From: a virus
Length of the DNA stretch: 64,000 bases
Strand: one strand, 5' to 3'
IMG/VR virus record: IMGVR_UViG_3300032116_015700
Coordinates: 27,094-91,093 of that record
In this document: positions 1,733-62,976 of the stretch, piece after piece
Layout: each line of letters starts with the position of its first letter
Position numbering within the stretch: the stretch's first letter is position 1
Position numbers and translations under genes: made by a program
The notes under the pieces: generated by a model
Told to the model about the DNA's origin: nothing
Databases searched by the model: none
Seen by the model: only the letters and a program-made list of their open reading frames with translations

Positions 1733-1740
1733 TATAAATA
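1733..1740 (-). promoter_or_regulatory. Putative late-promoter motif (sense TATTTATA)
   Basis: About 24 nt upstream of ATG 1709, just downstream of a terminator. Confidence 0.55.
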
Positions 1741-1764
1741 CATTATTCTAAAAAAATTAGAAAT

Positions 1765-1793
1765 AAAAAAGGGATACCTTTTGAGTATCCCTT
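1765..1793 (-). terminator. Intrinsic terminator after the tail tube gene
   Basis: gggatac/gtatccc stem with a flanking A6 (U tract on the minus strand). Confidence 0.7.
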
Positions 1794-1814
1794 ATTTTTA
1801 TCTTTTTTCTTAAA

Positions 1815-2312: not shown

Positions 2313-2366
2313 TTTTAATTACCTTTTATTTTATATTAATAAATATCTATTTTGTTTGTTTTCGTA

Positions 2367-12000: not shown

Positions 12001-14670
12001 ATCAGCAAGATTTATTGTTTCGGTATTAATTGTAGTTGTTGTACCACTTACAGTTAAGTTACCAGTAATTGTTGCATTACCAGTCACTGTCAATAATGTA
12101 CCATCAAAAGTTAAATTACTTTCAACAGTACCATTTGGTGCACTTCCATTTAATGTGATTACACCATTATCAGTTGTACCAGTTAATGCTAATAAACCAG
12201 ATGAACCACCACTACCTGAAGTTCCTGCAGTTCCACCACTACCCGATGTACCCGATGTGCCACCACTACCAGAAGTACCAGATGTACCACCACTTCCTGC
12301 GGTGCCTCTTGTACCAGATGAACCACCACTACCTGCAGTTCCAGATGAACCACCGCTACCCGATGTGCCGGCAGTACCACCACTTCCTGCACTACCGGAT
12401 GTGCCTCCGCTACCAGCAGTACCAGATGAACCTCCACTACCTGCAGTTCCAGATGAACCACCGCTACCCGATGTACCAGAAGAACCTCCACTACCTGCAG
12501 TTCCAGCAGAACCAGATGTACCTCCACTACCAGATGAGCCAGCAGAGCCACTTGTTCCTGCTGAACCAGAACTTCCCGAAGAACCTGCTGAACCAGATGT
12601 ACCCGAAGTACCACTATCTCCTGTTCTTACAAAATCAAGAACCAATTGTGCGTTATTTGAAGGAAGTGTACCACTTACATAAGAAACAGGAATTTTAAAA
12701 TAGCCTGATGCGTTTGTTACCGCGCCATTAACTAAAAATATATTATTAACAGTACCACTATCTCTTGAAGATAATACTACATATCCTCTAGCTCCTAATG
12801 TTGTACTATCATCCCATGTATTAAGCCATGCTAATTGGTTATTGCCATTTTGGTCTAAAATATCAATATAGATAAATGTTACTGAACCGATTGTTGCATT
12901 ATTATACTGAACCTTACCATTACCAGGATCAGTATCAGTTATTATTGTACTAAAATCATACTTGATACCACCACTTTGTCCACTTGTACCACCACTACCA
13001 GCAGTTCCTGCTGAACCAGATGTACCAGATGTGCCGGCACTTCCAGAAGTACCTGTTGTACCAGATGAGCCGGTTGTACCTGAAGTGCCTCCACTTCCAG
13101 ATGTACCCGAACTACCACCAGAACCAGAACTACCACTTAAACCCGATGAACCTGCTGAGCCGGATGTACCCGCAGTGCCTCCACTACCAGATGTGCCAGA
13201 ACTACCAGATGTACCTGATGTACCTCCACTACCTGAAGAACCTGCACTACCACCTGCTCCTGTAATACCAGAAGAACCCGTTGAACCGGATGTGCCAGAA
13301 CTACCTGAACTGCCTGATGTTCCTGATGTTGATGAAGAACCCGAAGAACCGGATGTACCTGCACTACCACCTGCGCCTGAAATGCCAGATGTACCTCCAC
13401 TACCTGCTGTACCAGCACTACCTCCGGTACCAGATGAACCATTTGTACCAGAACTACCTGATGAGCCAGAAATACCGGATGAACCCGTTGTACCAGAAGA
13501 ACCTGTGCTTCCCGAAGAACCACCACTACCTGCAGTACCCGTTGTACCTGCCGAGCCGGTTGTACCAGATGAACCGGTTGTACCAGATGAACCCGAACTA
13601 CCAGAACTTCCTGATGAACCCGAACTACCTGAAGAACCAGAAGTTCCTCCGCTACCCGATGTACCACCGGAACCAGATGTGCCTCCTGAACCAGAAGTAC
13701 CACCGGAACCAGAAGTTCCTCCACTACCAGAAGTACCTGATGTACCTCCGGATCCAGAACTACCTGAACTACCACCACTACCAGATGTACCAGATGTACC
13801 ACCACTACCCGAAGTTCCTGAAGAACCCGAGCTACCAGATGTGCCACTTGTACCACCACTACCAGAACTACCTGAACTACCACCACTACCTGATGTACCA
13901 GAGCTGCCGCTTGAACCAGAAGAACCTGATGAGCCTCCACTACCTGATGTGCCAGAAGTACCAGATGTACCAGATGTTGCTGCTGCAAATCTTCTACCTA
14001 CTCTGCCTGTTGTTAAGTTTACAACTAAAACTTCATTCGTTGTATTATCAGTAGGTATTGTATCACCAGTAACTCCTATTGAGCCACTTACTGAAAGTGA
14101 ACCTGTAATTTCTTGTCTATCTGATGTTGCATCACCAAATTTATTTGAACCACTTGCATAGATAATTGATGATGATATGAATGTTGTATGTAATTCGGTT
14201 GTAGTAATTTTTCCACCAACTACTAAATTATTTGCAATTGTTGCATTACTACCAATTGTTGCACTTCCACTTACTATTAAAAAATTATCAATAGAAACAC
14301 CAGTGTTTACAATCAAACCTTTATTTGGTGAAATATTTGCAATTGCTGAACCAGACTTTAGTTGATTCAAATCCCCAATTGCAGATGCATTAATATTAAA
14401 TAATCCACCACCATCGCCTCTAAATAAAGAAGCCGATATTGATGATGAAATATTTAAAGAACCGGTAATTTGTACATTACCTAAAATTTGTATCGGAGAA
14501 TTAGATTGTGATACAATTAAATTTGTTTGTACACCAGAAGCACTAAAACTACCAACTATACTCACCGATGCAGATGAAAAGTCAGCAATTTTACTTCCAC
14601 TTACAAATAATCCAATTAAGGATGAACTTAATTGATTTAAACCATTAGGACTTTTACCTAAATACTCCAT
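6052..14670 (-). CDS. Long tail fibre with Gly-X-Y tracts and a C-terminal S74 intramolecular chaperone
   Basis: C-terminal SDRRLKDNV...GFIAQEV...coiled coil (S74 autochaperone); two GSS/GTS tracts; eight YD-x-N-x-x-YY-x-DP junction motifs. Confidence 0.85.
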   Translation of the reverse strand: MEYLGKSPNGLNQLSSSLIGLFVSGSKIADFSSASVSIVGSFSASGVQTNLIVSQSNSPIQILGNVQITGSLNISSSISASLFRGDGGGLFNINASAIGDLNQLKSGSAIANISPNKGLIVNTGVSIDNFLIVSGSATIGSNATIANNLVVGGKITTTELHTTFISSSIIYASGSNKFGDATSDRQEITGSLSVSGSIGVTGDTIPTDNTTNEVLVVNLTTGRVGRRFAAATSGTSGTSGTSGSGGSSGSSGSSGSSGTSGSGGSSGSSGSGGTSGTSGSSGSSGTSGSGGTSGTSGSGGSSGSSGSGGTSGTSGSGGTSGSGGTSGSGGTSGSGGTSGSGGTSGSSGSSGSSGSSGSSGSSGTTGSSGTTGSAGTTGTAGSGGSSGSTGSSGTTGSSGISGSSGSSGTNGSSGTGGSAGTAGSGGTSGISGAGGSAGTSGSSGSSSTSGTSGSSGSSGTSGSTGSSGITGAGGSAGSSGSGGTSGTSGSSGTSGSGGTAGTSGSAGSSGLSGSSGSGGSSGTSGSGGTSGTTGSSGTTGTSGSAGTSGTSGSAGTAGSGGTSGQSGGIKYDFSTIITDTDPGNGKVQYNNATIGSVTFIYIDILDQNGNNQLAWLNTWDDSTTLGARGYVVLSSRDSGTVNNIFLVNGAVTNASGYFKIPVSYVSGTLPSNNAQLVLDFVRTGDSGTSGTSGSAGSSGSSGSAGTSGSAGSSGSGGTSGSAGTAGSGGSSGTSGSGGSSGTAGSGGSSGTAGSGGTSGSAGSGGTAGTSGSGGSSGTAGSGGSSGTRGTAGSGGTSGTSGSGGTSGTSGSGGTAGTSGSGGSSGLLALTGTTDNGVITLNGSAPNGTVESNLTFDGTLLTVTGNATITGNLTVSGTTTTINTETINLADNIITLNSNFTSGAPTENAGIEVRRGSSATVSFYWDESNDRWTADNTLYVNGNVVLTGTIDTGQGATEVYLMNQNLRTTDNVTFNQVTANTFVGSLSGNATTATTATFINVQDTRATASTPQTQNANQGVRFDFKQNSTNGLNDGGTYNGVMYFRKYGSTTDWSGGGANELGFTDNGNMWLRYGSSTSWGAWKRIMDTTSYPYAANMNQDVRTTDSPTFANATIAGHYYTSNNGSNIAIRSQNNNSDVGLLLQNSGGSYKVQIYGTGANYGFLNGAWASWDIRKEVNGNMFLNNQSTYYLNGSEIFYNRVYGVTDMRSPIYYDYNDTYYYLDPAGSSRLNTVYPQNLGGATLNVRSTDVGVNGSGIYEAITFIDGTVVQAHVSTGNGNPSGCYQWYTTEWVEVNAEKDYEFIVWVRSTGNDNLYVGWNEQRTDGTGISSNPYFHTSPLNTGGTWVKLVHKFRSWRTPSPQGNTEGVDRYASTSSNVIDNTNSNADGVMHSSTRRVQMRFGTCYGGVNGSKTYFYAPRIREATHEEFKQSVTIPYWNGSSYGGRLRFGYNDWGYTGIGMYGAAGEFRMSSDSGDLNVRVDGWGIYNNYLQTYIFYDLANSAYRIDGDGQSRLQQLAVGSSGAAWDVSGINVNGDMGITGANFIYFGHSNGSLGSWQTRTYASGGRQIWNLNGFEFNRTGYGGNLVLYSDSSERVGISTSDFSYTASDNSATVGSITNNRLFINGSVQLLGNNDAIVFGRGTSTFLKDEELRFGWGGGWYMQDSTWIRSSGGRNVYVDSYIRAQGSFRVGSEYSIWGTYGTYSAYLTRMAYISFDWNASYDLYYYHGIASTDLNGSFSDSISINSFNDIILRVDSNDNNNNSYVRFMDNTSGNNQFAYIGRESGSPIAYFGGSVYGTIFYDANDSGYYIDPNSTSQSAGRMRGGILFGPNPTWGAYLYVGTDGRQGLVDSGTPSVASTNGNLHLDAGSGYQLYLNYYDGNVIYFGGGAYNNWGEFSSGIFYAYNQMRSPIFYDYNNTGYYVDPNGNSNIYSLTSGYFYVNGYGYDTSNSDQWPYIYWLRAGSWDEGLIKHSTSRGYWGREGFGIHMSSSKSFSILTSGWTGVAQFHPDGHLWVRDQMRAGIYYDANDTTYYVNPAGDSRFSGIYLSGISSSSNGIYFYGVVGDNPGSYNHTALIERIWRNGDESELLLFKGNDPDTSTIHDRLRVAATGRIVFHSTATYGNVNDYISAAGTGNIEGSGYFYGGEFHVPGNIQTPIMYDRNNSGYFVDPAGRSRLSSMDYGNGGYYLAGGSWGYRHNTPYGYIEFGPANSSHAHIYTDRSNFYYNVYEMYLNGYRVAMYNWWVGNMYLGSGGDFYATIFYDSNNSGYYINPDGGSSMNQVTTNNLYIRPGYMLHSDPGGWTGEHYKLQWHSSHMYGQIYGNGYFIMRYGSDGLESHQFARDGNYWNRYMGWMSNYINQNVRTDAGPTFQEVYVNGWFRNNTSGHGLYNQNRGMHWYSNNGYWKSAGGGYGYGGIVMYNNYESDLRGYAGYWDGSGFGMLNSSGNWQIRIEYGNAHMELYRVTWANDMRAYIFYDRGDTGYYMDPNSRSQWLGLENRGKGNISLTGRSNWRRPQDYTGDVYYWTGNMGWGTTDFNWVMDWGSGDIDTWSNPANQPPGTSHWVGVQSYHYTWSYNSGYGWQLVGGPVDRLWFRNSWPNNSGWKAQVDSNNRGEYCIPTYDYNHYSRVYFTYNRGYYATQTDSAMCQPYSTGNNGAFMSFHKGGYYALNLGLDGDNVVRWGGWSSRWQRYYLNDDTIGTPYVVRANFDNYGGGGMWVSDDGDLADVNDGYLSLRASYGLRIFSGNRGGGANINLRYDGVIIASNNIIAYGSPSDRRLKDNVKFYENALEKVLKLRGVEFDWKEGTDEYETTGLRHDIGFIAQEVEDIEPLLVRADEAGYLAIRDRAMPALLVNAMKEQQAQIEELKAKVKMLEEKLGLG
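12196..12624 (-). repeat. Gly-X-Y (GSS/GTS/GSG/GTA) tract 2 of the 2872-aa fibre, ~140 aa
   Basis: Gly at every third residue; synonymous codons vary. Confidence 0.9.
12968..13977 (-). repeat. Gly-X-Y tract 1 of the 2872-aa fibre, ~335 aa
   Basis: Gly at every third residue; X/Y almost only S, T, G, A. Confidence 0.9.
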
Positions 14671-15356: not shown

Positions 15357-15800
15357 TTAAGGTTTTACCGGCCATACTATATTAAAAGGGGTTGTTTGTG
15401 TTGTCACATCTCTTAACTGTTGTCTATACGATTGCCAAATTGTTTTAGTTTCATTTGGAATATCAGCTAATTGTGTCCAATCACATTCTATTAATAATTC
15501 GTTTCTAATTTGTCTAATTTCTTCCCACTTAATTTCTATTCTATTATCTATCTCACTTTGCGAGGCGTTGGTTTGAACCCAATTTTGATAATAAACACCA
15601 TCTACTAATATTGGTGTTCCTTCGGTAATATTTTTTGTATAATCATTTGGTTTTGGGGTTTGTCTTACTTCAAATATATTATATTCATTCATTACCGATT
15701 CCGTCATCTCTGATGGGAAACTGATTCGCGGATTATCTTCTCTTAATTGTTTTAAAGAGTAAGGATATGTTGTTTCATTATTTACAATTCTTAAATACAT
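15357..15800 (-). CDS. Tail fibre assembly chaperone
   Basis: IRQIRNELLIECDWTQLAD...W-x-x-YRQQLRD...WPVKP signature. Confidence 0.8.
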   Translation of the reverse strand: MYLRIVNNETTYPYSLKQLREDNPRISFPSEMTESVMNEYNIFEVRQTPKPNDYTKNITEGTPILVDGVYYQNWVQTNASQSEIDNRIEIKWEEIRQIRNELLIECDWTQLADIPNETKTIWQSYRQQLRDVTTQTTPFNIVWPVKP

Positions 15801-15802: not shown

Positions 15803-16702
15803 TTACTTAAAGTTTAATGGAATTGAAGCAAAATTAGATAAACCTGTGCAGTTATTAAAACAATCAACTCCCGATGGTGTTGGTACTCTATTCCAAAGTT
15901 CTGGTGCTGTACCTGTTAAAGAATTTGTAGTTGTACTCATATTGTAACAACTATTAAAAATTGTTACAGAAGTATTAAAGGTAAATTGTAAAACGTTTGT
16001 TAATGATAAACAGTTTCTAAATGTACCCGAAAAGTTTGTTGCTAATGTGTTTTGGTCAAATAATGTTGATGGTACTGATGTTAAACCGGTACACGCAAAA
16101 AAGCAAGAAGAAAATATAGTTGCACTTGTATTTGCATCAAATAATCCCGAAGGCACTGTTGATAACGTTGGTATGGATGAAAACGTATCCGAAAATGTTG
16201 TTGCTAAAGGAGAGAATGCAAATATATCCGAAGGTATCGTTGTTATACGTGTGGCTCTCATAAAATTTGCAAATGAACGCATTTCATTTAAGCCATCGTA
16301 GCCACCAACTGCACTCATACTTGCACTTGAAGGTATAGATGTAATATTTACACATCCATAAAAATTTATAGTTCTAGAACCAACACTACCCCATTGAACA
16401 ATCGCTGTTATTAAATTTCTAATTGATGCCGAATTATTTACTGTAAAGCCAGGCATTAATCCGCTAATTGTAATTGTATATGTTCCAGCAGAAACATAAG
16501 TATGAATTCTTGCTACCGAAGAAGAAGAAGTTATTAAACCAGAATTAGAACCATCTCCCCAATCTATATTAAGATTTGGAGAAAGACCTCCAAAATCAGA
16601 TAATGGACAAGTAAAAACGGTGTTTGCCGCTGTTGTTGTTACTTGAAATTTAAAAGGAAACGTTTCTTCTCCCGTTGGTATTAATTTTCTTGCTATACTC
16701 AT
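15803..16702 (-). CDS. PKD-like plus BspA-type leucine-rich-repeat protein, putative adhesin
   Basis: IDWGDGS...HTYVSAGTYTITI, then repeats ITTIPSDIF, LSTVPSGLF, LTSVPSTLF with F-x-x-C-x-x-L. Confidence 0.65.
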   Translation of the reverse strand: MSIARKLIPTGEETFPFKFQVTTTAANTVFTCPLSDFGGLSPNLNIDWGDGSNSGLITSSSSVARIHTYVSAGTYTITISGLMPGFTVNNSASIRNLITAIVQWGSVGSRTINFYGCVNITSIPSSASMSAVGGYDGLNEMRSFANFMRATRITTIPSDIFAFSPLATTFSDTFSSIPTLSTVPSGLFDANTSATIFSSCFFACTGLTSVPSTLFDQNTLATNFSGTFRNCLSLTNVLQFTFNTSVTIFNSCYNMSTTTNSLTGTAPELWNRVPTPSGVDCFNNCTGLSNFASIPLNFK

Positions 16703-16713: not shown

Positions 16714-19700
16714 TTAACTAATATTTTTTCCTACTACAAATCCGTAATATGTTGTACCACCATTAAATGTAAAGAATGTTAATACATCCGTACCGGCTGA
16801 TGTTAATACAGGTGCTGTACCACCTGGCCAATCAACACTTGCTGGCCATGTTATAGCAAATGCTCCCGCATTTACTGTTGTTAAAGTAAATCCAAACGCG
16901 TTTGAAGCAGGTGGATTACTAAATGCTATTGTTGCGGCTCCATTAAATTGTCTTCTAAAGTTATTACCGGTTGAAAGGTCAATTGTTACACTTCCACCAG
17001 TTCCTTGGTCTGCATAAGTTTCTCTAAATGTTGTTGCTGATATGAAAGTACTTGCAGCAATTGAAGTTGTTACTGTCACATTTCCGGTAATAGCCAATGT
17101 ACTACCATTGAATGTCATATTATCTTCAACTCTTACATTCGGAGGTGTTCCTTCTAATGTTAATACACCATTATCAAGCGTACCACTAAATGATGCGAAT
17201 CCAGAAGTACCATTTGTACCATTTACACCAGAACTACCGTTTGTCCCCGATGTTACTCCTAATGCTGAAGTACCAGACGTTCCACTTACACCAGCACTAC
17301 CCGATGTACCAGATGAAATTCCTGGTGTTGATGTGCCCGAAGAACCCGATGTTCCACTAAATCCATCAGTACCAGATGTACCAGAAGTAAAGCCTGGAGG
17401 AGTTGTTCCTGAAGTACCTGATGTACCTGCGTCTCCTTGCGAACCTTGTGCTCCAGATGTACCAGAAGTTCCACTACTTCCAAAGAATGTACCATTTAGA
17501 CCAGAACTACCAGAAGTGCCAGATGTACCATCGGTACCTGTACTACCAGAGCTTCCAGCTGAACCATTTGTTCCATTTACACCCGAAGTGCCATTTGAAC
17601 CAGAGCTTCCTGCAGTTCCACTACTTCCAAAGAATGTACCATTTAGACCAGAGGAACCCGAACTACCAGATGTTCCATCAGTACCACTTACTCCAGAACT
17701 ACCTGCGGTGCCAGTTGAGCCTGAACTACCCGATGTTCCACTACTTCCAAAGAATGTACCATTTAATCCACTGCTACCTGAACTACCTGAAGTACCAGAT
17801 GTTCCACCGGTTCCGTCCAATCCAGATGAACCTGCGGTACCTGTACTACCCGAACTTCCTGCGGTACCAGATGAACCAAAGAATGTACCATTTAATCCTG
17901 AACTACCAGAAGAACCTGATGAACCAGCTGAGCCAGTTGTACCTCCACTACCAGATGTACCCGATTCGCCTGAAGAACCAGAAGAACCCGATGAACCACT
18001 ACTACCAAAGAATGTACCATTTAGACCAGAACTACCTGAAGAACCCGAACTTCCACTTATACCCGATGTACCGTCTACGCCACTTGTCCCTCCGGTGCCC
18101 GATGTACCTGTGGTACCAGATGAACCAAAATAAGTTCCATCTAAACCAGATGTACCTCCACTACCCGAAGTGCCATCAGTACCAGAGAGCCCGCTAGAGC
18201 CTGAAGTTCCATCTAATCCAGATGAACCTGCAGTACCAGTGGTACCGTTTGTACCCGATGTACCCGAACTTCCAAAATATGTACCATCTAAACCAGATGT
18301 ACCTGCTGAGCCAGTTGTACCATCCGAGCCGCTACTACCAGAGCTTCCTCCACTACCAGATGAACCAGAACTACCCGAACTTCCCGATGTACCTGATGAA
18401 CCAAAGAACGTTCCATTCAAACCAGAAGAACCGGATGAGCCAGAACTACCAGATGTACCGGATGTGCCTCCACTTCCACTACTACCATCGGTACCAGATG
18501 AGCCGGATGTGCCACTACTTCCATCTATACCACTCGTACCATCAGAACCAGTTGTACCAGATGAGCCCGTTGTTCCTGAACTACCAGATGAACCTGCACT
18601 ACCCGATGAACCTGCTGAACCAGATGAGCCATCAGTACCGCTACTACCATCACTGCCAGAGGTGCCCGAAGTACCTTCAGAGCCGGTTGTACCAGAAGAC
18701 CCGGTTGTACCAGATGAACCTGATGTTGATGATGAACCCGATGAACCCGAACTACCTGAGCTTCCACTTGTACCATCAATTCCACTTGTGCCATCAGAGC
18801 CAGTTGTACCGGATGAACCCGTTGTGCCACTGCTACCTGCGGTGCCAGAACTTCCTCCCGAGCCGGAACTACCATCAGTACCCGAAGAACCTGCAGTTCC
18901 AGAGGAACCAGAACTACCCGATGAACCTGATGTACCCGAACTTCCTGAACTTCCTGATGAACCTGAGCTGCCCGCTGAACCGCTACTACCATCAGTACCA
19001 GATGAACCATCACTTCCGCTTGTACCAGAACTACCCGAACTTCCTGAACTTCCTGATGAACCAGATGTGCCAGATGTACCCGATGTACCGGATGTGCCAT
19101 CAACACCTGAAGAACCTGCAGTACCAGAGCTTCCAGATGTACCCGAAGAACCTGTTGTACCAGATGAACCCGTTGTGCCTGAGCTGCCACTAGTACCACT
19201 ACTACCAGATGTTCCTGAACTTCCAGAACTACCAGATGAACCTGATGAACCTGTGGTACCAGAACTTCCACTTGAGCCAGAACTACCCGAACTACCAGAT
19301 GTTCCCGATGTGCCATCTACTCCGCTTGTTCCTGAACTTCCTGAAGTACCTGCTGAACCCGTAGTACCAGATGAGCCGGAACTTCCTGAGGTGCCACTTG
19401 TACCGGATGTGCCCGATGTGCCTCCACTACCTGAAGTACCTGATGTGCCCGCTTCACCACTACTACCTGAAGTTCCCGAAGTACCAGATGTACCATCTGA
19501 ACCAGATGTTCCCGATGAGCCTCCACTACCAGAACTACCACTTGTGCCGCTTGTACCAGATGTACCACCCGTACCTGCAGTTGCAGATGAACCAGAACTT
19601 CCTGATGTACCAGAACTTCCTGAGGTGCCAGATGAGCCTCCGGTACCAGTTGTACCTGATGTGCCTGCAGTACCTCCTGAACCAGAAGTACCTCCACTAC

Positions 19701-22700
19701 CTGATGTTGCAGATGTACCAGAACTACCCGAACTTCCTGAGGTGCCAGATGTACCAGAACTTCCTGATGTGCCACTTGTACCAGAAGAACCAGATGTGCC
19801 TCCACTACCTGATGTTCCCGATGTACCATCTGAACCAGTTGTACCAGAACTTCCAGATGTACCAGAACTTCCTGAGGTGCCACTTGTGCCAGAAGAACCC
19901 GATGTGCCACTTGTGCCAGATGTGCCGGATGTGCCCGAACTTCCAGAACTACCAGATGTGCCGGAGCTTCCACTTGTACCTGCAGTGCCACTACTTCCAG
20001 ATGTACCAGAACTACCAGATGAACCTGTTGTACCAGAGCTTCCGCTTGTACCAGAGCTGCCGCTAGAACCTGATGAGCCGGAAGTACCAGATGAGCCGGA
20101 ACTTCCTGAACTTCCGCTAGAGCCAGAGCTTCCGGAAGTTCCAGCAGTACCAGATGAACCAGAACTACCAGAAGAACCTGATGAACCATCGGTACCAGAT
20201 GTGCCACTAGAACCCGAACTACCTGCAGAGCCAGTTGAGCCAGAAGTACCAGAAGTTCCCGATGAACCAGATGAACCATCAAAACCAGAAGTACCACCTG
20301 TACCAGAAGAACCTACCGCTGCTGCTACGTTTCTATATGCTAATCTTTTTGTTATTGGGTCCCAAATTACCACCTCATTTGAAGAACCAGATGGTAAACT
20401 TTGTAATGCTACACTACTACTAAAAAATACACTTCCACTTACACCTAAACTTCCACTAATTGTAAGTGATGCATTTATTGTTTGGTTTGTATTGATGTTT
20501 AAGAATGATGATGTATCGGATGATGGGGTATTTAATGCAAACATTGCATAAGATGCAGTTCTTGCAAAAGTTATACTATCCATTCCCAATGGACCATCAA
20601 CATCAGATGAAAGTACATAGGATGCTGTCAATGATGTTTGTGCTAATCCACCATTTATAGTTACTAATACACCATCCGAGCCAGATGCAATTACATCAAC
20701 ACCCGAACCACTAAAGTTAATTTTAGCAACTTGAGATTTTGTTAATGAACCGGTATGGAAAATAAATAAATCAGTTCCTCCACCTTGTCCAGCATTTAAT
20801 GCGTAAGATGCGGTTAATGCGTAAGATGAACTTACTGCACTAAATACCGCCATTGAAGATGTTTGGTTATTTCTTACATATTCATTTGCATTTGCTAATG
20901 ATGCAGATAAAGCCGAAAGTGATGCTGAATCAAATCCAGTTACCGCATCAGCAAATCCTGCTTTAACAGCGTATGATGCAGAAAGTACAGTACCAAACAC
21001 TCTATCACCAGGTATCGTACCATTAATCAATGAACCACCACTACCAATTACAACGTGTCCAGAGGTTAATCCAGCAAATATTAATTGAATAGTATCATCA
21101 TCAATTGATTTTACAGTACCAGGTATAATTTGGTCTTCCGAACCTGTTGCGTAAACTTGTACAACTGGATATCTAATACCCAAATTATGTACAATTGTTA
21201 AAGTACTTACATTATTAAAAGATACAGTTTCAGTTAATGAAGTTTCAGGTTGTGGTACAAAATATCCTCTCGCTTCGTCAAATCTTAAAATATCATATTC
21301 AGCAGATGCAGTTGGTCCTACTCCTTGGAAATTGTATGTACCCAAGAATGAACCACTAACTAATGGAGAAAATAAATAATGACTTGCCGTAATTTCATTT
21401 GCTCTCAATCTACCATCAACATAAGAATCACCCCAAACAAATGAAGATGTATTAACTACAAATCCTTTATCAGGTGAAATTGATGCCGTTGCTGAACCAC
21501 TCTTTAATATAAATGTTTCAAACGATAAGTTAGCAATATTGATATTTGTCAATCCACTACCATCACCAAAGAAAACAGAACCAGAGTTTGCTACAATGTT
21601 TCCACCTGTAACGAACAATGCACCGGTTACACTTAAGTTACCAGATACGAATGTTCTAGTTCCAATTTGCAATCCTTTATTTGGTGATATTACTGCTTCA
21701 ACTGAACCAGACTGAATTCTATCAATCTTTAAATCATCTAATGCTTCCGGTGGGATATTAAATAATCCACTACCATCTCCGTCATATCTTGCAGCAGTAA
21801 TTGGTACGTTTACATTTAATATATTTGGGTCAATAATAGCAACGCCTGAGCCAGAGTTAATTTTAAATAACTCCAAGTTTTCAATCGCATCAGGTGGGAT
21901 ATTAAATAATCCGCCACCATCACCAAAATATATTGATGCTGTAATTGCACCACTAACCGCCAATGAGGCTGTAATTTCTGCTTTAAATGAGCCAGATTGA
22001 GGTGAAGTTATGACTTGAAATCTATCACCACTTGCTACCGATGCGGTTGCACTACCACTAGCAATCAAAGGAGATGCTGCCGCAACTACGTTTGTTAATT
22101 GAGAACCATCTCCAACAAATGCAAACGCTGTAATACTACCACTAACATCTACAGAACCAGTAATTCTAGTTCCAATTTGTGAACCAGTTGCTCCGGTTGT
22201 TACAATAAATGTATCTCCACTTTGAACTGATGCTGTTGCCGAACCACTACCAATGAATGGTGCAGCTGCCGCTTGTACATTAGTAATATAAGAACCATCA
22301 CCAACAAGATATTGTGCTTTAACACTTCCACTTACATCAATAGAACCAGTGAATCTAGAACCATATTGTACATCCAAACCACTACCAGTTGCTGCAGTTG
22401 TAATAATAAATGTATCACCACTTTGAACGGATGCAGTTGCACTACCACTAGCAATTAATGGTGCTGCTGCCGCTTGTACATTTGTAATATATCTACCGTC
22501 ACCAAATAAGAATTCAGTTGCTCTTATACTTCCACTAACTTCAATAGAACCAGTGAATTGAGAACCAACTTGCGATTGTGTGAATGGAGTTATTACTCTA
22601 AATCCTTCATCAGGAGTAACCGATGCAGTTACTGAACCTGATTTGATTTCAGTACTAATAAGTGCATCTTCTGTTAATGCTGATTTTGGAATACGTCTTA

Positions 22701-25700
22701 AATAAGTACCTTCAGCGTATATGAATGAACTAGAATCAATAAATAATCCGCCACTTATATCTGATATAAATAAACTACCACTTACTGAAACAGAACCTGT
22801 AAATTGAGATGCAATAGATGCCGTAAACGAACCATCTTCACCAAATGATGATGTAAATGGAGTTAGTACAACGAATCCAAAATCAGGAGATACCGATGCT
22901 GTTACGGATCCAGATTTAATTTCAGCAGATATTAATGCATCTTCAGTAAGTGCTGAACGAGGTATGTTTCTTAAATATGCACCCTCTCCAAAGAAATTAG
23001 AAGATGATTCAAGCAATAATGCTCCAGAAGTTGCATTTATTATCATACTACCAGTAATCAATAAGCTACCGGTAAATTGTGAACCACTATCTACGGATTC
23101 TACTTTAAATCCATAATCAGGTGCTACTGAAGCGGTTACGCTTCCACTCGCTATACGGAATACTTCTTCTGATAATGCTGAACGAGGTATATCAAATAAT
23201 CCTCTACCACTACCACTATACATTGAAGCGGTTAATGTACCTTCTATTTTAGTTGCACCAATAAATTTAATTTCCGCAGGTATTACAATTGAATCTACAA
23301 TATTCATTGTACCTGCCATAGATGAATGCAATTGACAGTTATAATACAAAACATTTGGAGAACCAGATGGTGGAGTAAATGTTATTGTTCCATTATCAGT
23401 ACCATTGTTAGATACTCCACTATTATATTGATTTGCAGTACCTGTTGTTTGTGTTGTCTTAATTAAGAATGGGTGTCCACTTGCATTTATGTTAAAAGTA
23501 TGAGTGACACCTCTTACTAAAGTAAGTGTTGGATTTGAACCTTGTATTGAACCACTAAACACATACTCACCACTTCCATTATTAGTTACATTATAAACAG
23601 GAAATAAAGATGAAGTTAGTACTTCTCTTGCCGATGATGAAACTATAAAACTACCACTAATTGTGGAATATGTATTAACCTCAAATCCTCTATCAGGTGC
23701 TATTGATGCTGTTACACTTCCACTAAATATTTTTGTAGAATCAATTGCTAAATTGGCTAATGTAATATTTGTTAATTTAGAACCATCCCCAACAAAGAAA
23801 GAACCACTTTCTACATAAAGACTTCCACTTACTCTTACACTACCAGTAAAGAATGAACCACTTGCGGCAGATTTAACTACAAATCCAAAATTAGGTGAAA
23901 CTGATGCCGTTACTGAACCAGATTTGATTTCAGTTGATATCAATGCATCTTCACTTAATGCATTTCTTGGAATATTTCTTAAATAAGTACCTTCACCAAA
24001 ATATGCAGATGATGAATCTAAAATTAATGAGCCCGATGTTGTTGTTACTCTTAAACTTCCAGTTATAGCAACACTACCCGTTATTCTAGAACCCAAATCT
24101 GACGATTCAACGATAAATCCTCTATCAGGTAATGCAGAGGCAGTAACACTACCACTTGCAATTCTAAATAATTCTTGCGAAAGTGCTGAAAACGGAATAT
24201 CTGTCAATCCAGCACCACTACCACTAAATACCGATGCGGAAACTCCCATTCTAAATCTTGCACTGCCACTTACACTTAAACTACCACTAAATGCAGAACC
24301 ACTTGCTACTGAATTTACTACAAATCCAAAATTAGGTGCTACTGAAGCGGTAACGCTACCACTAAAGATTTTAGAAGTATCTAAATCAGATATTGCGGAA
24401 CGAGGTATATCAAATAAATTTCTACCGCTACCAGAATATGATGAACCGGATGATAAGAATACACCACCTCCACTTATGAATAAACTTCCACTAAATCTTG
24501 AACCACTTGTTATTGATTCTACTCTAAATCCAAAATTAGGTGCTACCGATGCGGTTACACTACCACTAGCAATTAACGAAATATCAAAAGATAAAGCAGA
24601 ACGTGGAATATCGTAAAGAAATCTACCACTACCACTAAATGAAGAACCCGTCTCCAAAAATACACCACCACCAGTAATAAACAACGAACCAGTGAATCTA
24701 GAACCAAATTCAGCAGATTCAACTTTAAAACCAACACTATCAGGATTTACTGATGCGGTTACACTACCACTTGAAATTCTGTTTGATACTTCCGATGGAA
24801 CATTTCTCAATCCACTACCATCTCCTACAAAAGAACCAGATACTAAAGAAGCACTGACTATAAAAGCTCTCAAACTACCACTTATATCAACAGAACCTGT
24901 AAATTGAGAACCATACGCTGAGCCCGTTCTATCGGTTTCAACTTTGAATCCAAAATCAGGTGTTGTTGATGCGGTAATTGAACCTGATGCTATTCTAAAT
25001 GCATCACCGGTAAATGCAGAACGTGGAATATTAAATAATCCACTACCATCTCCTTGAAAGAATGAACCACTAAAAGAGCCTGTAAATTCCCTTGCTCTTA
25101 CATAATCTCTTACATACAATCCACCACTTATAGCAGTATTGCCTTCAAATAAAATTCTATCTTGAAGATATAAGTTATCAACTATACTCATTGATGCACC
25201 CATCGCAGAGTGGAATTGACACTGATAAAATAAAGTATCAGGTGAACCCGAAGGAGGTGTGAAATATACTGAACCACTATCTTCACCGTTATTTACAACT
25301 CCAGTATTATATTGTGCTGCTGTACCAGTTGTGGCAGTTGTTTTTATAAAGAAAGGATGCCCGTTTGCATTTACTTCAAAGCGGTAAGTTACCCCTCTTA
25401 CTAAAGTCAATGCTGGGTTTTGTCCACTTGCTGCACCATCAAATACATATGCAGATGAACCAGCTGAAGTTACATAAAAATAATTTGGTATTGATGAGGT
25501 TGCTAGCGGTTCTGCTGAAGATGATACTACAAAACTACCACTAATTGTTGAACGAGTATTTACAGTAAATCCGTAATCTGGTGTAATTGATGCGGTATAT
25601 GAACCACTAAATATTTTTGATGTATCTAAATCAGATATTGCCGTTTTTGGAATATCAAAAAGGAATCTACCGCTACCAGAATAAGAACCAGAATATAATT

Positions 25701-27255
25701 CTACTCTACTACCACTTATTTTTAAACTACCGGTAAATTGAGAACCACTTGCTTCTGATATTACCTGAAATCCTTTATCCAAAGAAACTGATGCGGTCAC
25801 CGAACCAGTCTGAATTCTTGTTGCTGCTACAACTTCTTCTGCTAAAGCGGATAATGGAATATTAAATAATCCCTCACCACTACCAGAATAAAAAGAACCA
25901 TCTGCTAATTGAACAATACCACCGGTTACAAATAAAGAACCAGTAAATTTTGAACCACTAAAAGGTGATGTTACTACAAACCCCCTATCAGGAGAAACTG
26001 ATGCAGTTACGCTACCACTTTTAATTTCTACTGATATTAATGCATCTTCGGTAAGTGCATTTCTTGGAATATTTCTTAAATAAGTACCTTCACCAAAATA
26101 TGCAGATGATGAACCCAAAATAAGTGCACCGCTTGTAGCAGTAATAATCATACTTCCGGTAATAAACACACTACCTGTAATACGAGAACCACTATCTACT
26201 GAAATTACTTGAAATCCAAAATTTGGTGCTACTGAAGCAGTTACTGAACCGGATTTGATTTCGGTACTAATTAAAGCATCTTCAGTAAGTGCCGAACGAG
26301 GTATTTCTCTCAAATATTTACCTTCACCATAATATACTGAACCTGACCTTAATTGTATAGAGCCACTAAATGGATTTATAAATAAACTACCAGATATATC
26401 AACACTACCAGTAAATTCTGAACCACTCTCTATTGATTCTACTCTAAATCCAAATTCAGGTGTTACAGATGCGGTTATAGAACCTGTTGCCAATTTAGTA
26501 GCTTCAGGCAGATTTATTAAATTTCTACCATCACCAAAAAATGAACCAGTAAATGAACCGCTAAAAGAACCTGTCAATTCCGCAGAACCTGTGAAAGTAC
26601 CAAAAGCGCTTGCACTTCCTATAAATGAACCCGTAAGATTACCTGATATAGTTGAACCAGAAATCACATATGCATTTAATCTATCTCTTACTTCTACCGA
26701 ACCTGTAAATTGTTGTATATCAGTTTCCTCATCACCAAATACATTTGAACCTGATGAGTAAATTATTGAAGAAGAAATATAAGATACTAAAATCTGCTCA
26801 GCGTATATTGTATCATCTACATATAAATCACCTTGTATCCTAGTATTTGTATTGACTAATAAATCATTATTAATAAAAGAGGCAGTTGCCGAACCACTTG
26901 CTATAAAAGTTGCATCAGGTAGATTTCTTAATCCACTACCATCACCACTAAACGAACCGGAAAAAGAGCCGGAAAAAGAACCCGTAAAACTACCACTTAA
27001 TGATGTAGCACTACCAGTAAAAGAACCTGTAAATTGTCCAGTTACTCTATCTAAATCTAAACTCCTTACAAATCCTCTATTACCCTGGTCATCCGAAACT
27101 ACTATCGCAGGGGAGCCAGAAAGTGAAGCAGAAAAGTTTGGAACACCTAAATTTGGTTCAACTTGAGATAAATCTATAAATTGATACCTATCCGGTGTTA
27201 CATTTTTGGGTGAAACTACCCTTACCCTACCCGTTAAAAGATTACTTATTGCCAT
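16714..27255 (-). CDS. Giant Ser/Gly/Thr-rich fibre protein (3513 aa)
   Basis: About 22 SGSVTAS-type beta repeats, two cupredoxin-like domains, a ~1040-aa Gly-X-Y tract, and a C-terminal WPASVDWPGGTAP-type tip domain. Confidence 0.8.
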   Translation of the reverse strand: MAISNLLTGRVRVVSPKNVTPDRYQFIDLSQVEPNLGVPNFSASLSGSPAIVVSDDQGNRGFVRSLDLDRVTGQFTGSFTGSATSLSGSFTGSFSGSFSGSFSGDGSGLRNLPDATFIASGSATASFINNDLLVNTNTRIQGDLYVDDTIYAEQILVSYISSSIIYSSGSNVFGDEETDIQQFTGSVEVRDRLNAYVISGSTISGNLTGSFIGSASAFGTFTGSAELTGSFSGSFTGSFFGDGRNLINLPEATKLATGSITASVTPEFGFRVESIESGSEFTGSVDISGSLFINPFSGSIQLRSGSVYYGEGKYLREIPRSALTEDALISTEIKSGSVTASVAPNFGFQVISVDSGSRITGSVFITGSMIITATSGALILGSSSAYFGEGTYLRNIPRNALTEDALISVEIKSGSVTASVSPDRGFVVTSPFSGSKFTGSLFVTGGIVQLADGSFYSGSGEGLFNIPLSALAEEVVAATRIQTGSVTASVSLDKGFQVISEASGSQFTGSLKISGSRVELYSGSYSGSGRFLFDIPKTAISDLDTSKIFSGSYTASITPDYGFTVNTRSTISGSFVVSSSAEPLATSSIPNYFYVTSAGSSAYVFDGAASGQNPALTLVRGVTYRFEVNANGHPFFIKTTATTGTAAQYNTGVVNNGEDSGSVYFTPPSGSPDTLFYQCQFHSAMGASMSIVDNLYLQDRILFEGNTAISGGLYVRDYVRAREFTGSFSGSFFQGDGSGLFNIPRSAFTGDAFRIASGSITASTTPDFGFKVETDRTGSAYGSQFTGSVDISGSLRAFIVSASLVSGSFVGDGSGLRNVPSEVSNRISSGSVTASVNPDSVGFKVESAEFGSRFTGSLFITGGGVFLETGSSFSGSGRFLYDIPRSALSFDISLIASGSVTASVAPNFGFRVESITSGSRFSGSLFISGGGVFLSSGSSYSGSGRNLFDIPRSAISDLDTSKIFSGSVTASVAPNFGFVVNSVASGSAFSGSLSVSGSARFRMGVSASVFSGSGAGLTDIPFSALSQELFRIASGSVTASALPDRGFIVESSDLGSRITGSVAITGSLRVTTTSGSLILDSSSAYFGEGTYLRNIPRNALSEDALISTEIKSGSVTASVSPNFGFVVKSAASGSFFTGSVRVSGSLYVESGSFFVGDGSKLTNITLANLAIDSTKIFSGSVTASIAPDRGFEVNTYSTISGSFIVSSSAREVLTSSLFPVYNVTNNGSGEYVFSGSIQGSNPTLTLVRGVTHTFNINASGHPFLIKTTQTTGTANQYNSGVSNNGTDNGTITFTPPSGSPNVLYYNCQLHSSMAGTMNIVDSIVIPAEIKFIGATKIEGTLTASMYSGSGRGLFDIPRSALSEEVFRIASGSVTASVAPDYGFKVESVDSGSQFTGSLLITGSMIINATSGALLLESSSNFFGEGAYLRNIPRSALTEDALISAEIKSGSVTASVSPDFGFVVLTPFTSSFGEDGSFTASIASQFTGSVSVSGSLFISDISGGLFIDSSSFIYAEGTYLRRIPKSALTEDALISTEIKSGSVTASVTPDEGFRVITPFTQSQVGSQFTGSIEVSGSIRATEFLFGDGRYITNVQAAAAPLIASGSATASVQSGDTFIITTAATGSGLDVQYGSRFTGSIDVSGSVKAQYLVGDGSYITNVQAAAAPFIGSGSATASVQSGDTFIVTTGATGSQIGTRITGSVDVSGSITAFAFVGDGSQLTNVVAAASPLIASGSATASVASGDRFQVITSPQSGSFKAEITASLAVSGAITASIYFGDGGGLFNIPPDAIENLELFKINSGSGVAIIDPNILNVNVPITAARYDGDGSGLFNIPPEALDDLKIDRIQSGSVEAVISPNKGLQIGTRTFVSGNLSVTGALFVTGGNIVANSGSVFFGDGSGLTNINIANLSFETFILKSGSATASISPDKGFVVNTSSFVWGDSYVDGRLRANEITASHYLFSPLVSGSFLGTYNFQGVGPTASAEYDILRFDEARGYFVPQPETSLTETVSFNNVSTLTIVHNLGIRYPVVQVYATGSEDQIIPGTVKSIDDDTIQLIFAGLTSGHVVIGSGGSLINGTIPGDRVFGTVLSASYAVKAGFADAVTGFDSASLSALSASLANANEYVRNNQTSSMAVFSAVSSSYALTASYALNAGQGGGTDLFIFHTGSLTKSQVAKINFSGSGVDVIASGSDGVLVTINGGLAQTSLTASYVLSSDVDGPLGMDSITFARTASYAMFALNTPSSDTSSFLNINTNQTINASLTISGSLGVSGSVFFSSSVALQSLPSGSSNEVVIWDPITKRLAYRNVAAAVGSSGTGGTSGFDGSSGSSGTSGTSGSTGSAGSSGSSGTSGTDGSSGSSGSSGSSGTAGTSGSSGSSGSSGSSGSSGTSGSSGSSGSSGTSGSSGTTGSSGSSGTSGSSGTAGTSGSSGTSGSSGSSGTSGTSGTSGTSGSSGTSGTSGSSGTSGSSGTTGSDGTSGTSGSGGTSGSSGTSGTSGSSGTSGTSGSSGSSGTSATSGSGGTSGSGGTAGTSGTTGTGGSSGTSGSSGTSGSSGSSATAGTGGTSGTSGTSGSSGSGGSSGTSGSDGTSGTSGTSGSSGEAGTSGTSGSGGTSGTSGTSGTSGSSGSSGTTGSAGTSGSSGTSGVDGTSGTSGSSGSSGSSGSSGTTGSSGSSGSSGSSGTSGSSGTSGSSGTTGSSGTTGSSGTSGSSGTAGSSGVDGTSGTSGTSGTSGSSGSSGSSGSSGTSGSDGSSGTDGSSGSAGSSGSSGSSGSSGTSGSSGSSGSSGTAGSSGTDGSSGSGGSSGTAGSSGTTGSSGTTGSDGTSGIDGTSGSSGSSGSSGSSSTSGSSGTTGSSGTTGSEGTSGTSGSDGSSGTDGSSGSAGSSGSAGSSGSSGTTGSSGTTGSDGTSGIDGSSGTSGSSGTDGSSGSGGTSGTSGSSGSSGSSGLNGTFFGSSGTSGSSGSSGSSGSGGSSGSSGSDGTTGSAGTSGLDGTYFGSSGTSGTNGTTGTAGSSGLDGTSGSSGLSGTDGTSGSGGTSGLDGTYFGSSGTTGTSGTGGTSGVDGTSGISGSSGSSGSSGLNGTFFGSSGSSGSSGSSGESGTSGSGGTTGSAGSSGSSGSSGLNGTFFGSSGTAGSSGSTGTAGSSGLDGTGGTSGTSGSSGSSGLNGTFFGSSGTSGSSGSTGTAGSSGVSGTDGTSGSSGSSGLNGTFFGSSGTAGSSGSNGTSGVNGTNGSAGSSGSTGTDGTSGTSGSSGLNGTFFGSSGTSGTSGAQGSQGDAGTSGTSGTTPPGFTSGTSGTDGFSGTSGSSGTSTPGISSGTSGSAGVSGTSGTSALGVTSGTNGSSGVNGTNGTSGFASFSGTLDNGVLTLEGTPPNVRVEDNMTFNGSTLAITGNVTVTTSIAASTFISATTFRETYADQGTGGSVTIDLSTGNNFRRQFNGAATIAFSNPPASNAFGFTLTTVNAGAFAITWPASVDWPGGTAPVLTSAGTDVLTFFTFNGGTTYYGFVVGKNIS
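17200..20313 (-). repeat. ~1040-aa nearly proline-free Gly-X-Y tract
   Basis: (GSS/GTS/GTT/GSA/GTD)n with eight GL[N/D]GT[F/Y]F interruptions in the distal part. Confidence 0.9.
21400..26950 (-). repeat. ~22 degenerate 65-80 aa repeats (SGSVTASVxPxxGFxV...FTGS...GxGxxLxNIP)
   Basis: Counted by eye in the translation; boundaries approximate. Confidence 0.8.
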
Positions 27256-44894: not shown

Positions 44895-45200
44895 TTAATT
44901 ATCCAATTGTTTCCATTGTCCACCATCCCATCCATAGAAATGAGAATCGGTTGTATTAAAGTAAAGTGCTCCAGAGTTTGGTGAAGATGGAGCAGATACA
45001 TGGTTTGGTAAAATAATACTAGCGCTTACGTTTAAAGAACCACTTATTGTTTGATTACCAATAAATGTATTTGAACCAGTTGTTGCAAAAGATGCAGATT
45101 CAATTGAGAATCCAGACGTGCCAGATGTCCCACTTTTACCAGAAACTCCTGCAGTTGATATAGTTACCTGTGTAAGATTATTTGTTACTGTTACTGACAT
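44895..45200 (-). CDS. Mini fibre / head decoration protein
   Basis: Short GVSGKSGTSGTSG tract, TTGSNTFIGNQTISGSL, and PSSP-x-SGALYFNT...WDGGQW. Confidence 0.55.
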   Translation of the reverse strand: MSVTVTNNLTQVTISTAGVSGKSGTSGTSGFSIESASFATTGSNTFIGNQTISGSLNVSASIILPNHVSAPSSPNSGALYFNTTDSHFYGWDGGQWKQLDN

Positions 45201-62229: not shown

Positions 62230-62976
62230 TTATTTTTCAAACACCGAAACTCCCCTTTTTTTCACAACTTCTCCCGCACAATAGTTTCCCCATTTTATAG
62301 ATTCTTCTACATCATTAGAACTTAAATACTTTGCAACAAATCCTGCTACAAATGTATCACCCGCACCACTTACATCGGCATTATCTATTTTTTTAGTTTT
62401 AATTAGATTCCCCTTATACGATGCTCCTTTACCATCCAACGTTATAATTATTTTTTCGTCTAACCATTCATTTTCTACAATTATATCGTGATTATTTTGT
62501 GCCTCAAATCTATTTAATTTTATATATGATATATTTCTACACCAATCACCCAATGTTTTTTTGGTATCAAGTATGATTAAATGATGTAATTTAGAAATTT
62601 CAAATATATCATTTTCGGTTAGAAACCCTTTACAATAATCCGAAATAACAACCGCATCAAATTCTGATAAAGGTGGTAGTTCGCTAATATTGATTCTTTT
62701 TACTAAATCATTTTCATCTACCCTTAAATAAAGCTCATTTGTATCTTTATTTATATATCTGGTTTTAATAATATTTCCTTCACCACAAAAAGTTTTTACT
62801 TTTATATCCATTGATTTCAGATTTGCAGCAGTGTTAGCAGCCATACCCAAATTTACAACCGTTTCAATCGGATTAAAAATAGGACCGTTTCCTTCGGGTG
62901 ATTTTCTAGTTGATGTCCCATATATGAAAACATCATTGCATTTCTCACCAATTACTAAAACTTTATATTTTGACAT
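62230..62976 (-). CDS. rfaE1: Heptose-7-phosphate kinase (HldE kinase half, PfkB family)
   Basis: RKSPEG-x-x-PI, GMAANTAANL, VVISDYCKG, DVSGAGDTFVAG, VVKKRGVS. Confidence 0.85.
   Translation of the reverse strand: MSKYKVLVIGEKCNDVFIYGTSTRKSPEGNGPIFNPIETVVNLGMAANTAANLKSMDIKVKTFCGEGNIIKTRYINKDTNELYLRVDENDLVKRINISELPPLSEFDAVVISDYCKGFLTENDIFEISKLHHLIILDTKKTLGDWCRNISYIKLNRFEAQNNHDIIVENEWLDEKIIITLDGKGASYKGNLIKTKKIDNADVSGAGDTFVAGFVAKYLSSNDVEESIKWGNYCAGEVVKKRGVSVFEK

Follow-up and report, generated by a model that had tools for sequence, protein, structure and literature searches.

In current accounts the collagen helix is stabilised by hydroxyproline or proline, by salt bridges or, in Riftia cuticle collagen and BclA, by glycosylated Thr beside Pro, and a viral tail fibre that carries about a thousand residues in collagen register, with no Pro or basic residue in its triplets, raises the question of what such a chain forms and what might hold it together. 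The fibre is encoded in a 64,000-nucleotide stretch of IMG/VR virus record IMGVR_UViG_3300032116_015700 (positions 27,094 to 91,093), called the window below, which is the right-hand 64 kb of a 91-kb virus contig estimated to be ~52% complete. Its 3513 residues (aa) begin with ~2300 aa of Ser-rich beta repeats that hold two cupredoxin-like inserts, pass into the Gly-X-Y tract, and end in a tip domain. The reading that we favour, with somewhat better than even confidence, is that the tract would form the homotrimeric, probably O-heptosylated, collagen-like shaft of this giant fibre. The gene and the parts of it that matter here are located as follows.

16714..27255, minus strand: giant tail-fibre gene (P0001), 3513 aa, an intact open reading frame (ORF) with orthologues of 3271-3498 aa in IMG/VR contigs.
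20314..20379, minus strand: entry motif (NEVV...AAAV) ahead of the tract, aa 2293-2314, NEVVIWDPITKRLAYRNVAAAV, by direct reading.
18406..20313, minus strand: tract section A, aa 2315-2950, 209 triplets with only three register-preserving Gly-to-Ala/Ser substitutions (ATS, ATA, STS).
17401..18405, minus strand: tract section B, aa 2951-3285, with eight one-residue insertions, G-L-[DN]-G-T-[FY]-F-G-S-S-G, one every 13-16 triplets.
17194..17400, minus strand: tract section C, aa 3286-3354, with three register-preserving 6-residue breaks (PPGFTS, TPGISS, ALGVTS), 5-6 triplets apart.
16717..17193, minus strand: C-terminal 159-aa tip domain, with a beta-sandwich core modelled by AlphaFold2 (AF2) at a predicted local distance difference test score (pLDDT) above 90.

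The tract spans aa 2315-3354 (1040 residues; window 17194-20313, minus strand), and the first-pass annotation, which had placed a tract of ~1040 residues at 17200-20313, was correct apart from its lower coordinate, which is refined to 17194. Serine (393 residues, 38%), glycine (353, 34%) and threonine (174, 17%) dominate its composition, followed by A 28, D 27, F 18, N 13, L 12 and P 3, with no K and no R. Counted in runs of at least five, there are 335 Gly-X-Y triplets, in which X is Ser 161 times and Thr 146 times, and Y is Ser (225), Asp (26), Ala (23), Thr (22), Gly (15) or Asn (13). These residue and triplet counts agree with the earlier description of a Ser/Thr-rich, almost Pro-free chain with Gly at every third residue. 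The three prolines are confined to the C-terminal 6-residue breaks and their immediate flanks, the triplets themselves contain no Pro, Lys or Arg, and the usual collagen stabilisers (imino acids at X or Y; Lys/Arg-Glu/Asp pairs) are absent from them. Runs are 67, 94, 35 and 13-16 triplets long, and the longest unbroken run has 94 triplets, whereas the longest run averaged 6 and never exceeded 12 when the same residues were shuffled 1000 times. The tract is matched by the Pfam Collagen family PF01391 (IPR008160) with 335 bits (E 2.5e-102; cut-off 27.2).

The periodicity belongs to the protein rather than to a repeated stretch of DNA, as the annotation had proposed when it called the synonymous codons scrambled: Gly is encoded by GGT (201), GGA (85), GGC (63) and GGG (4), Ser by all six of its codons, and Tandem Repeats Finder reports only weak arrays in the tract DNA, with 54-94% identity and periods that are multiples of 9. 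On the plus strand opposite the tract (window 17042-20551) there are long ORFs of 363, 264, 793, 323 and 231 aa; these are by-products of the triplet composition that gene callers could take for genes, as seems to have occurred in Microcystis phage Mel-JY01.

Orthologous giant fibres were searched for with the C-terminal tip domain as the handle, which yielded 64 IMG/VR loci, and the 26 loci that were distinct and long enough, with ~27,600 tract residues between them, were analysed. Every one of the 26 carries a Pro-free Ser/Thr tract, of 305-424 triplets, and the order of sections A, B and C is kept across them, with unbroken runs that reach 193 triplets. In all but one of the 26 the tract measures 1048 +/- 48 aa, and the single exception, at 1438 aa, includes a 108-aa cupredoxin-like domain inserted within the tract. 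Over 8753 triplets, X is Thr in 54% and Ser in 36%, while Y is Ser in 72%, Asp in 7% and Thr in 5%; P, K and R account for 0.31%, 0.22% and 0.04% of tract residues. Four relatives, P0002-P0005, which are the nearest to the N-terminal 2314 aa of the fibre, were dropped as tract evidence, because they stop before any Gly-X-Y tract, apparently where their contigs end.

Comparison of the window tract with that of orthologue L003 over 1019 aligned codons gave 351 identical, 498 synonymous and 170 non-synonymous codons. Among 346 Gly codons, 197 had changed synonymously and 6 had lost Gly, a retention figure that a low-complexity alignment can flatter. Synonymous sites are thus saturated, and Gly periodicity is under purifying selection. 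A census of breaks in the 26 orthologues, which is alignment-free and does not share that weakness, counts events that are partly inherited and so are not independent. In it, Gly is replaced with the register kept 58 times, by Ala in 49 cases and by Ser in 9, and never by Asp, Val, Arg or Cys, which are also one nucleotide away from GGN. In model peptides for osteogenesis imperfecta, axial Gly is replaced with least disruption by Ala and Ser. The breaks that do alter the register are equally restricted. Each insertion in section B moves the Gly register by +1, giving a G3G break (three residues between Gly), and its motif is invariant in an alignment of 23 orthologues; the 267 one-residue insertions in the census read GTFFG (164), GTLFG (40), GTYFG (39) or GTMFG (20), with four exceptions, and one-residue deletions read G[LAVI]G in 54 of 58 cases. 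Replacement of Gly by Ala or Ser alone, a conserved length and an ordered set of breaks are more in keeping with axial packing of the kind seen in a collagen triple helix than with a loose linker.

The domains that accompany the tract bear on its likeness to ordinary collagen, and the relevant features, in the same gene, in a second giant fibre and elsewhere in the window, are listed here.

25177-25509 and ~23290-23604, minus strand: two cupredoxin-like domains in the 3513-aa fibre (His...Cys-x2-His-x2/3-Met; Pfam At5g54830-like, 27 bits).
15357..15800, minus strand: 147-aa tail-fibre assembly chaperone, matching several PHROGs tail-fibre assembly families (best E 1e-17).
6052..14670, minus strand: second giant fibre, 2872 aa, with the same kind of Gly-Ser/Thr/Gly tracts.
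6196-6375, minus strand: Peptidase_S74 intramolecular chaperone at the C-terminus of the 2872-aa fibre (55 bits).
45105..45149, minus strand: mini tract of five triplets (GVSGKSGTSGTSGFS) in a 101-aa protein of the head/neck module, by sequence reading.

The tip domain has 283 database homologues, which are labelled tail fibre in Roseobacter, Synechococcus and Microcystis phages, and it is, judged from these homologues, a widespread C-terminal module of aquatic-phage fibre proteins. Its model aligns (VIA-align) to beta-sandwich spike and baseplate domains of phages Pa223, Solidus, KP1 and CBA120 with Z scores of 6-7.8, which are clearly above those of the following matches yet middling in absolute terms; a Foldseek search of the PDB with the tip domain gave no match at E <= 0.001. 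In two homologues, P0065 and P0107, the same tip is preceded by classical Pro-rich GPT collagen. The cupredoxin-like domains, which are common to many cyanophage fibre proteins, are 57% identical to the one in P-SSM2 orf028, where the domain is flanked by Pro-rich Gly-X-Y tracts (the organisation of the P-SSM2 fibres is described in PMC1079782), and in the L056 clade one cupredoxin-like copy is located within the Ser/Thr tract. The occurrence of the same tip and cupredoxin-like domains beside Pro-rich collagen suggests that the Ser/Thr tract is structurally equivalent to ordinary collagen tracts. At its N-terminus (window 27150-27255, minus strand; GRV...DRY...EPNLG) the 3513-aa fibre also resembles the P-SSM2 tail-fibre protein orf023, and the shared motif may be a common baseplate-attachment module.

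The 2872-aa fibre enters its tract through a similar motif, NEVLVVNLTTGRVGRRFAAA, and contains runs of 71, 40 and 48 triplets (aa 234-446, 450-569 and 684-827; window 13333-13971, 12964-13323 and 12190-12621). Since the first two runs are parted only by a Gly-to-Ser substitution, the three runs amount to two tracts, as the annotation had stated for this fibre; the mini tract that it had also listed, in the 101-aa protein, comprises just 5 triplets. At Y, Gly (GSG) is much more frequent in the tracts of the 2872-aa fibre than it is in the main tract. The Peptidase_S74 chaperone is a hallmark of trimeric fibres, and its presence points to a trimeric, self-processing 2872-aa fibre. Together, this chaperone in the sibling fibre, the tail-fibre assembly chaperone and the spike-like tip domain would place the tract in a trimer context.

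What might substitute for proline and salt bridges is suggested by three genes at the right-hand end of the window.

63355..63999, minus strand: TibC/Aah-type protein O-heptosyltransferase (BAHT), C-terminal 214 aa, its gene cut at the contig end.
62963..63355, minus strand: 130-aa HldE domain-II-like heptose-1-phosphate adenylyltransferase (TIGR02199 97.6 bits, under the cut-off of 181.5; Pfam CTP_transf_like).
62230..62976, minus strand: 248-aa HldE domain-I-like heptose-7-phosphate kinase of the PfkB family (TIGR02198 95.3 bits, under the cut-off of 345; Pfam PfkB).

The three form one operon, in which the HldE-like pair follows immediately downstream of the transferase, and the same trio is found in a relative. 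The BAHT fragment, truncated by the contig end, scores 164.9 bits against TIGR04414 (cut-off 200), and a full-length orthologue that is 70% identical to it (L083:868-2016) scores 285.6 bits against this model and 29.7 bits against TIGR02193. In the PDB, the L083 orthologue matches TibC (4RAP/4RB4) at E 3.4e-55 and WaaC at E 0.55. Residues named in the TibC paper (PMC4358343) were placed on the alignment: the window fragment retains Thr226, Lys230, Trp305 and the four iron-finger Cys (TibC Cys339, 342, 358 and 370), and the L083 orthologue retains Asp110, Thr226, Lys230, Trp305, Phe368 and Cys339/342/358/370. On its sequence, then, the window transferase belongs to the TibC/Aah protein O-heptosyltransferase family, and heptose transfer to Ser is predicted. 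Judged by Pfam Glyco_transf_9 (GT9) alone, which is sub-threshold here at 18-19 bits, the transferase would have been dismissed; its identity was fixed by the PDB and NCBIfam searches. The gene has no autotransporter beta-helix beside it; its neighbours are the HldE-like genes and the terminase module. A literature search found no paper on a phage BAHT.

The enzyme is present in 182 IMG/VR contigs and in only 4 of 50,697 phage records, of which three belong to huge uncultured phages and one to Microcystis phage Mel-JY01. With 1.9 kb of tract DNA as the query, blastn returned 3 phage records only, all among these 4 enzyme carriers. Ser/Thr triplets were also scanned for with a degenerate pattern, (GGN WSN WSN)x6, which has 134 and 754 matches in the two IMG/VR genomes, G010 and G012, that are 100% complete among the scanned enzyme carriers, 1812 in LR756501, and 0 in P-SSM2, whose collagen is Pro-rich and which lacks the enzyme. 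The 96%-complete genome G001 combines the enzyme with two giant frames that have many Collagen-family matches. In Mel-JY01 (PP395634.1, ~bases 344-3050; L086 1-2709, plus strand) there is a long GSS/GTS/GTR/GTD tract, in a gene that appears to be cut by the record start. The record annotates an opposite-strand hypothetical protein (739-2298) over this tract, which translates to a Pro/Glu/Val-rich artefact, and the BAHT domain of Mel-JY01 is fused into a 1226-aa coding sequence labelled 'methyltransferase FkbM'; the literature search found no paper on this phage and nothing useful on virion O-glycosylation. Twenty fragmentary fibre contigs without the transferase were considered as counter-evidence and rejected, the 3 largest also missing the whole 9-kb enzyme neighbourhood.

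BAHT genes classically adjoin their substrate genes. The two closest bacterial homologues of the phage enzyme (47-48% identity, in betaproteobacterial metagenome-assembled genomes) directly adjoin genes for lipoproteins of ~100 aa, L178 11136-11450 and L179 11148-11453 (both on the minus strand), which lie convergent with the BAHT gene and tens of bases away from it. These lipoproteins have the lipobox LLVTAC, and beyond a short leader their mature part is mostly made up of 18-19 G-[ST]-[SA] triplets. No Ser/Thr Gly-X-Y run was present within 10 kb in the remaining 51 bacterial loci, 50 of which are at <=36% identity and one at 47%. Given the classical arrangement, the adjacency to the lipoproteins is the strongest pointer to the triplets as the acceptor.

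The trimer, the helix, the sugar, its acceptor sites and the role of the breaks, as we infer them, would fit together in the following way. The tract would be the distal shaft of a homotrimeric fibre. Anchored by the beta-repeat shaft on their N-terminal side and by the tip on their C-terminal side, three chains would twist together as a triple helix of the collagen type, ~300 nm long (1040 residues x ~0.29 nm). Gly would lie on the helix axis, with Thr or Ser at X and Ser at Y exposing their hydroxyls, and the phage TibC/Aah-type enzyme would O-heptosylate exposed Ser, chiefly at Y as the most exposed position, using ADP-heptose made from host heptose phosphates by the HldE-like kinase and adenylyltransferase. 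Since the triplets have no Pro and no Lys/Arg-acid pairs, stability and stiffness would be owed to O-heptosylation, with hydration mediated by the sugars and crowding among them supplying what otherwise comes from Pro or salt bridges. A precedent is that (Gly-Pro-Thr)10 is triple-helical only once galactosylated (PMC11923368). The composition seems to have been selected for hydroxyl density over helix propensity. Because slippage by one triplet or by many is open to a chain so close to a homopolymer, the register would be fixed by the aromatic one-residue insertions (GT[FYLM]-F-G) and by the closely spaced 6-residue breaks near the tip; these would act as registration marks that keep three low-complexity chains, almost identical to one another, in step as zipping of the helix proceeds from the tip. 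The complete picture, in which dense O-heptosylation makes a (Gly-Thr/Ser-Ser)n chain, free of Pro and of charge, into a stiff glyco-collagen rod of set length, ~300 nm, with aromatic insertions as its registration marks, in a module used by many aquatic phages and some bacterial lipoproteins, is offered more tentatively, and we would rate its chances somewhat short of even.

A triple helix stabilised by heptosylation was already the suggestion of the first-pass annotation. It is partly borne out, and the comparative evidence favours it, in that the transferase is genuine and co-occurs with the tracts, that Gly gives way only to Ala or Ser, and that tract length is kept, whereas the helix and the sugar are what we infer.

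Several observations weigh against this reading. Ser and Thr reportedly have low triple-helix propensity, as host-guest peptide work of Persikov et al. in 2000 is said to have found. Gly at Y, which occurs in 3-4% of the triplets here and far more often in the 2872-aa fibre, is counted as an interruption (PMC11923368). When the last 560 aa were modelled as a monomer with AF2, the tract scored a pLDDT of 30-45 and took no compact fold, an outcome that fits disorder as well as a fold that depends on oligomerisation. Within the enzyme, TibC Arg286 is replaced by Val (with a Lys beside it) and Pro300, which determines donor stereoselectivity, by Gly. Known BAHT substrates are beta-helix strand-loop-strand motifs, and it could be the Ser-rich beta repeats, which make up the N-terminal 2300 aa of the fibre, that truly accept the sugar. 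The enzyme gene of the present genome is not next to the 3513-aa fibre gene but 36-47 kb away, and the huge phage LR756504, with an enzyme only 33% identical, has 0 matches to the degenerate pattern. The phage lineages in which enzyme and tract co-occur may be related, so that independent events would be few. Finally, GmhA (SIS_2) was not found in the window's contig, in G001 or in Mel-JY01 (GmhB was not searched for), and the heptose phosphate substrate would therefore have to come from the host.

One rival is a heavily O-glycosylated, extended, mucin-like bottle-brush without a triple helix, in which Gly is part of a G-[ST]-S acceptor motif rather than an axial packing element. The short G-[ST]-[SA] tails of the bacterial lipoproteins suggest that the triplet itself is recognised, and the tract has no intrinsic helix stabilisers and is unstructured in the AF2 monomer model, as such a tether would be. 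However, aromatic insertions and register-preserving breaks are unexpected for a sequon array or a loose brush, and it would not explain why Gly is replaced by Ala or Ser alone in 58 of 58 cases, why tract length is kept within 5%, or why the tract is interchangeable with Pro-rich collagen beside the same domains. We consider such a tether, which the annotation had named as an alternative in the form of a flexible glycosylated chain, unlikely, yet in its non-helical glycosylated form it is still a live rival.

The reverse possibility is a triple helix that carries no sugar and owes its stability to the trimeric domains at its ends, to hydration of Ser/Thr hydroxyls, to aromatic knots and to cool temperatures, with the heptosyltransferase acting instead on the beta repeats, on a capsid decoration or on a host protein. 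The distance between the enzyme and fibre genes, the beta-helical nature of known BAHT substrates beside the Ser-rich beta repeats of the fibre, and the loss of Arg286 would all suit it. In contrast, the co-occurrence of the enzyme is specific to Ser/Thr-triplet DNA, the lipoproteins next to its bacterial homologues hold little except triplets, and the composition seems chosen for hydroxyl density and not for helix propensity, all of which makes an unglycosylated helix distinctly improbable.

A polyglycine-II bundle, also named by the annotation, would have the chain fold back on itself into antiparallel polyproline-II (PPII) helices and give a much shorter, thicker body. A three-residue Gly period with small side chains suits this packing, and the ~40-residue period of the tract's C-terminal third could mark the fold-backs. 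But the idea is weakened by section A, whose runs of 67-193 triplets lack a turn signal at any period; pairs of aromatic residues would be unusual at turns, the domain partners are those of ordinary collagen, and the AF2 monomer model has no compact fold, which by itself is weak evidence. We regard the bundle as very unlikely. An unmodified, intrinsically disordered spacer grown by replication slippage, without defined structure, might account for the low complexity, the low AF2 confidence and the weak tandem arrays in the DNA, but it is scarcely credible beside Gly retained while synonymous sites are saturated, length and break order kept in 26 orthologues, strong X/Y asymmetry, and Gly-site substitutions confined to Ala and Ser.

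The phage that encodes this fibre is a distant T4-like myovirus, with a tail sheath, a gp15-like protein, a baseplate, a gp23-like capsid protein, a gp20-like portal and a T4-type terminase. Its capsid protein is nearest to those of an uncultured 484-kb phage (55%), Mel-JY01 (53%) and Flavobacterium phage immuto (51%), and a megablast comparison of 20 kb from the window with phage records gave zero matches. Three giant proteins, of 2872, 3513 and 4363 aa, take up about one third of the contig; the last of them (window 28275-41366, minus strand) has zero Gly-X-Y runs of at least five triplets. The 3513-aa fibre gene sits in the tail module with the sheath, the baseplate and the fibre-assembly chaperone, and one further gene adjoins it.

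15803..16702, minus strand: 299-aa protein immediately downstream of the 3513-aa fibre gene, with no Pfam match.

This protein matches only the C-terminal 180 positions of phrog_9915, a profile of 1813 positions, and may be a fibre accessory; its second half shows a recurring Leu/Phe/Thr-rich pattern. Between the heptose genes and the terminase is the gene for a 938-aa protein (window 58920-61736, minus strand) with an N-terminal nucleotidyltransferase domain (weak NMN-adenylyltransferase-like matches) and DUF5661, and within the head module there is a 444-aa N6/N4 DNA methylase (window 48723-50057, minus strand) whose C-terminus is weakly sigma-70 region-4-like.

That phage fibres can contain Gly-X-Y tracts has been recognised since 1998-2005. 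Like the collagen fibres of phages and prophages (PF01391; P-SSM2 orf023/orf028 and EPclA of an E. coli O157 prophage), the present fibre places Gly-X-Y in what would be a trimeric tail fibre, and for P-SSM2 the residues at X and Y were described as 'often proline, serine or threonine' (Sullivan et al. 2005; PMC1079782). Those tracts, however, are Pro-rich (GPT, GPP, GPA) and run to tens or ~150 triplets, whereas here there are 335 triplets without Pro or basic residues, in a tract with a conserved length of ~1050 residues and ordered aromatic breaks. A closer parallel for the proposed stabilisation is offered by BclA of the Bacillus exosporium, in which a collagen-like helix is followed by a C-terminal globular trimer, by Riftia cuticle collagen and by (Gly-Pro-Thr(Gal))10, where stability is credited to O-glycosylated hydroxy-amino acids and not to hydroxyproline. 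The analogy with Riftia, which the annotation had drawn, holds for the idea of a glycosylated hydroxy-residue and is inexact in the positions: BclA and Riftia have Pro at X and Thr at Y (GPT), while here Thr stands at X (54%) and Ser at Y (72%), Thr at Y amounts to 5%, and Pro is missing. The candidate sugar also differs, being a heptose added by a BAHT rather than rhamnose/anthrose or galactose.

With the TibC-TibA and Aah-AIDA-I pairs of E. coli (TIGR04414; 4RAP, 4RB4), whose enzymes hyperglycosylate Ser of a repetitive fibre-like protein in the cytoplasm, the phage system shares the catalytic Asp, 3 of 4 sugar-binding residues and the Cys4 iron finger; it differs in that its candidate substrate is a phage Gly-X-Y fibre and not an autotransporter beta-helix, in that the gene is viral and accompanied by split HldE-like genes, and in the changes at Arg286 and Pro300. 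Streptococcal Scl2 and other Pro-poor bacterial collagens show that a triple helix can form without hydroxyproline when nucleated by a neighbouring trimerisation domain, but Scl2 relies on charged residues and KGE/KGD-type salt bridges, and the present tract has no Lys or Arg and ~3% acidic residues. Polyglycine-II folds such as the snow-flea antifreeze protein and the tip of phage S16 gp38 have the same Gly at every third residue and small side chains; they are compact and built of 10-13-residue PPII segments joined by turns, in contrast to the unbroken runs of up to 94 triplets here and 193 in orthologues. What sets the present case apart is a tract free of Pro and basic residues, with Thr at X and Ser at Y, a conserved length of ~1050 residues, ordered aromatic breaks, and a partnership with a virus-encoded BAHT and HldE-like genes.

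Since a Ser/Thr tract is combined with a phage-encoded enzyme predicted to add sugars to protein Ser, the phage probably builds a sugar-coated, collagen-like rod of ~300 nm in a way that has so far not been reported for a collagen. If this is true, the rod would be genetically encodable, Pro-free, tunable through its sugars and of defined length, which would be of use in biomaterials. A direct test is possible in Microcystis phage Mel-JY01, a cultured relative that has both the enzyme and such a tract. Gly periodicity and length are under strong selection across a large clade of uncultured phages, despite the lack of Pro and salt-bridge stabilisers, and if heptosylated Ser stabilises the helix, the folding code of collagen would be extended. 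It would also mean that a phage glycosylates its own virion with an enzyme family that has been described, in the literature searched, only for bacterial autotransporter adhesins.

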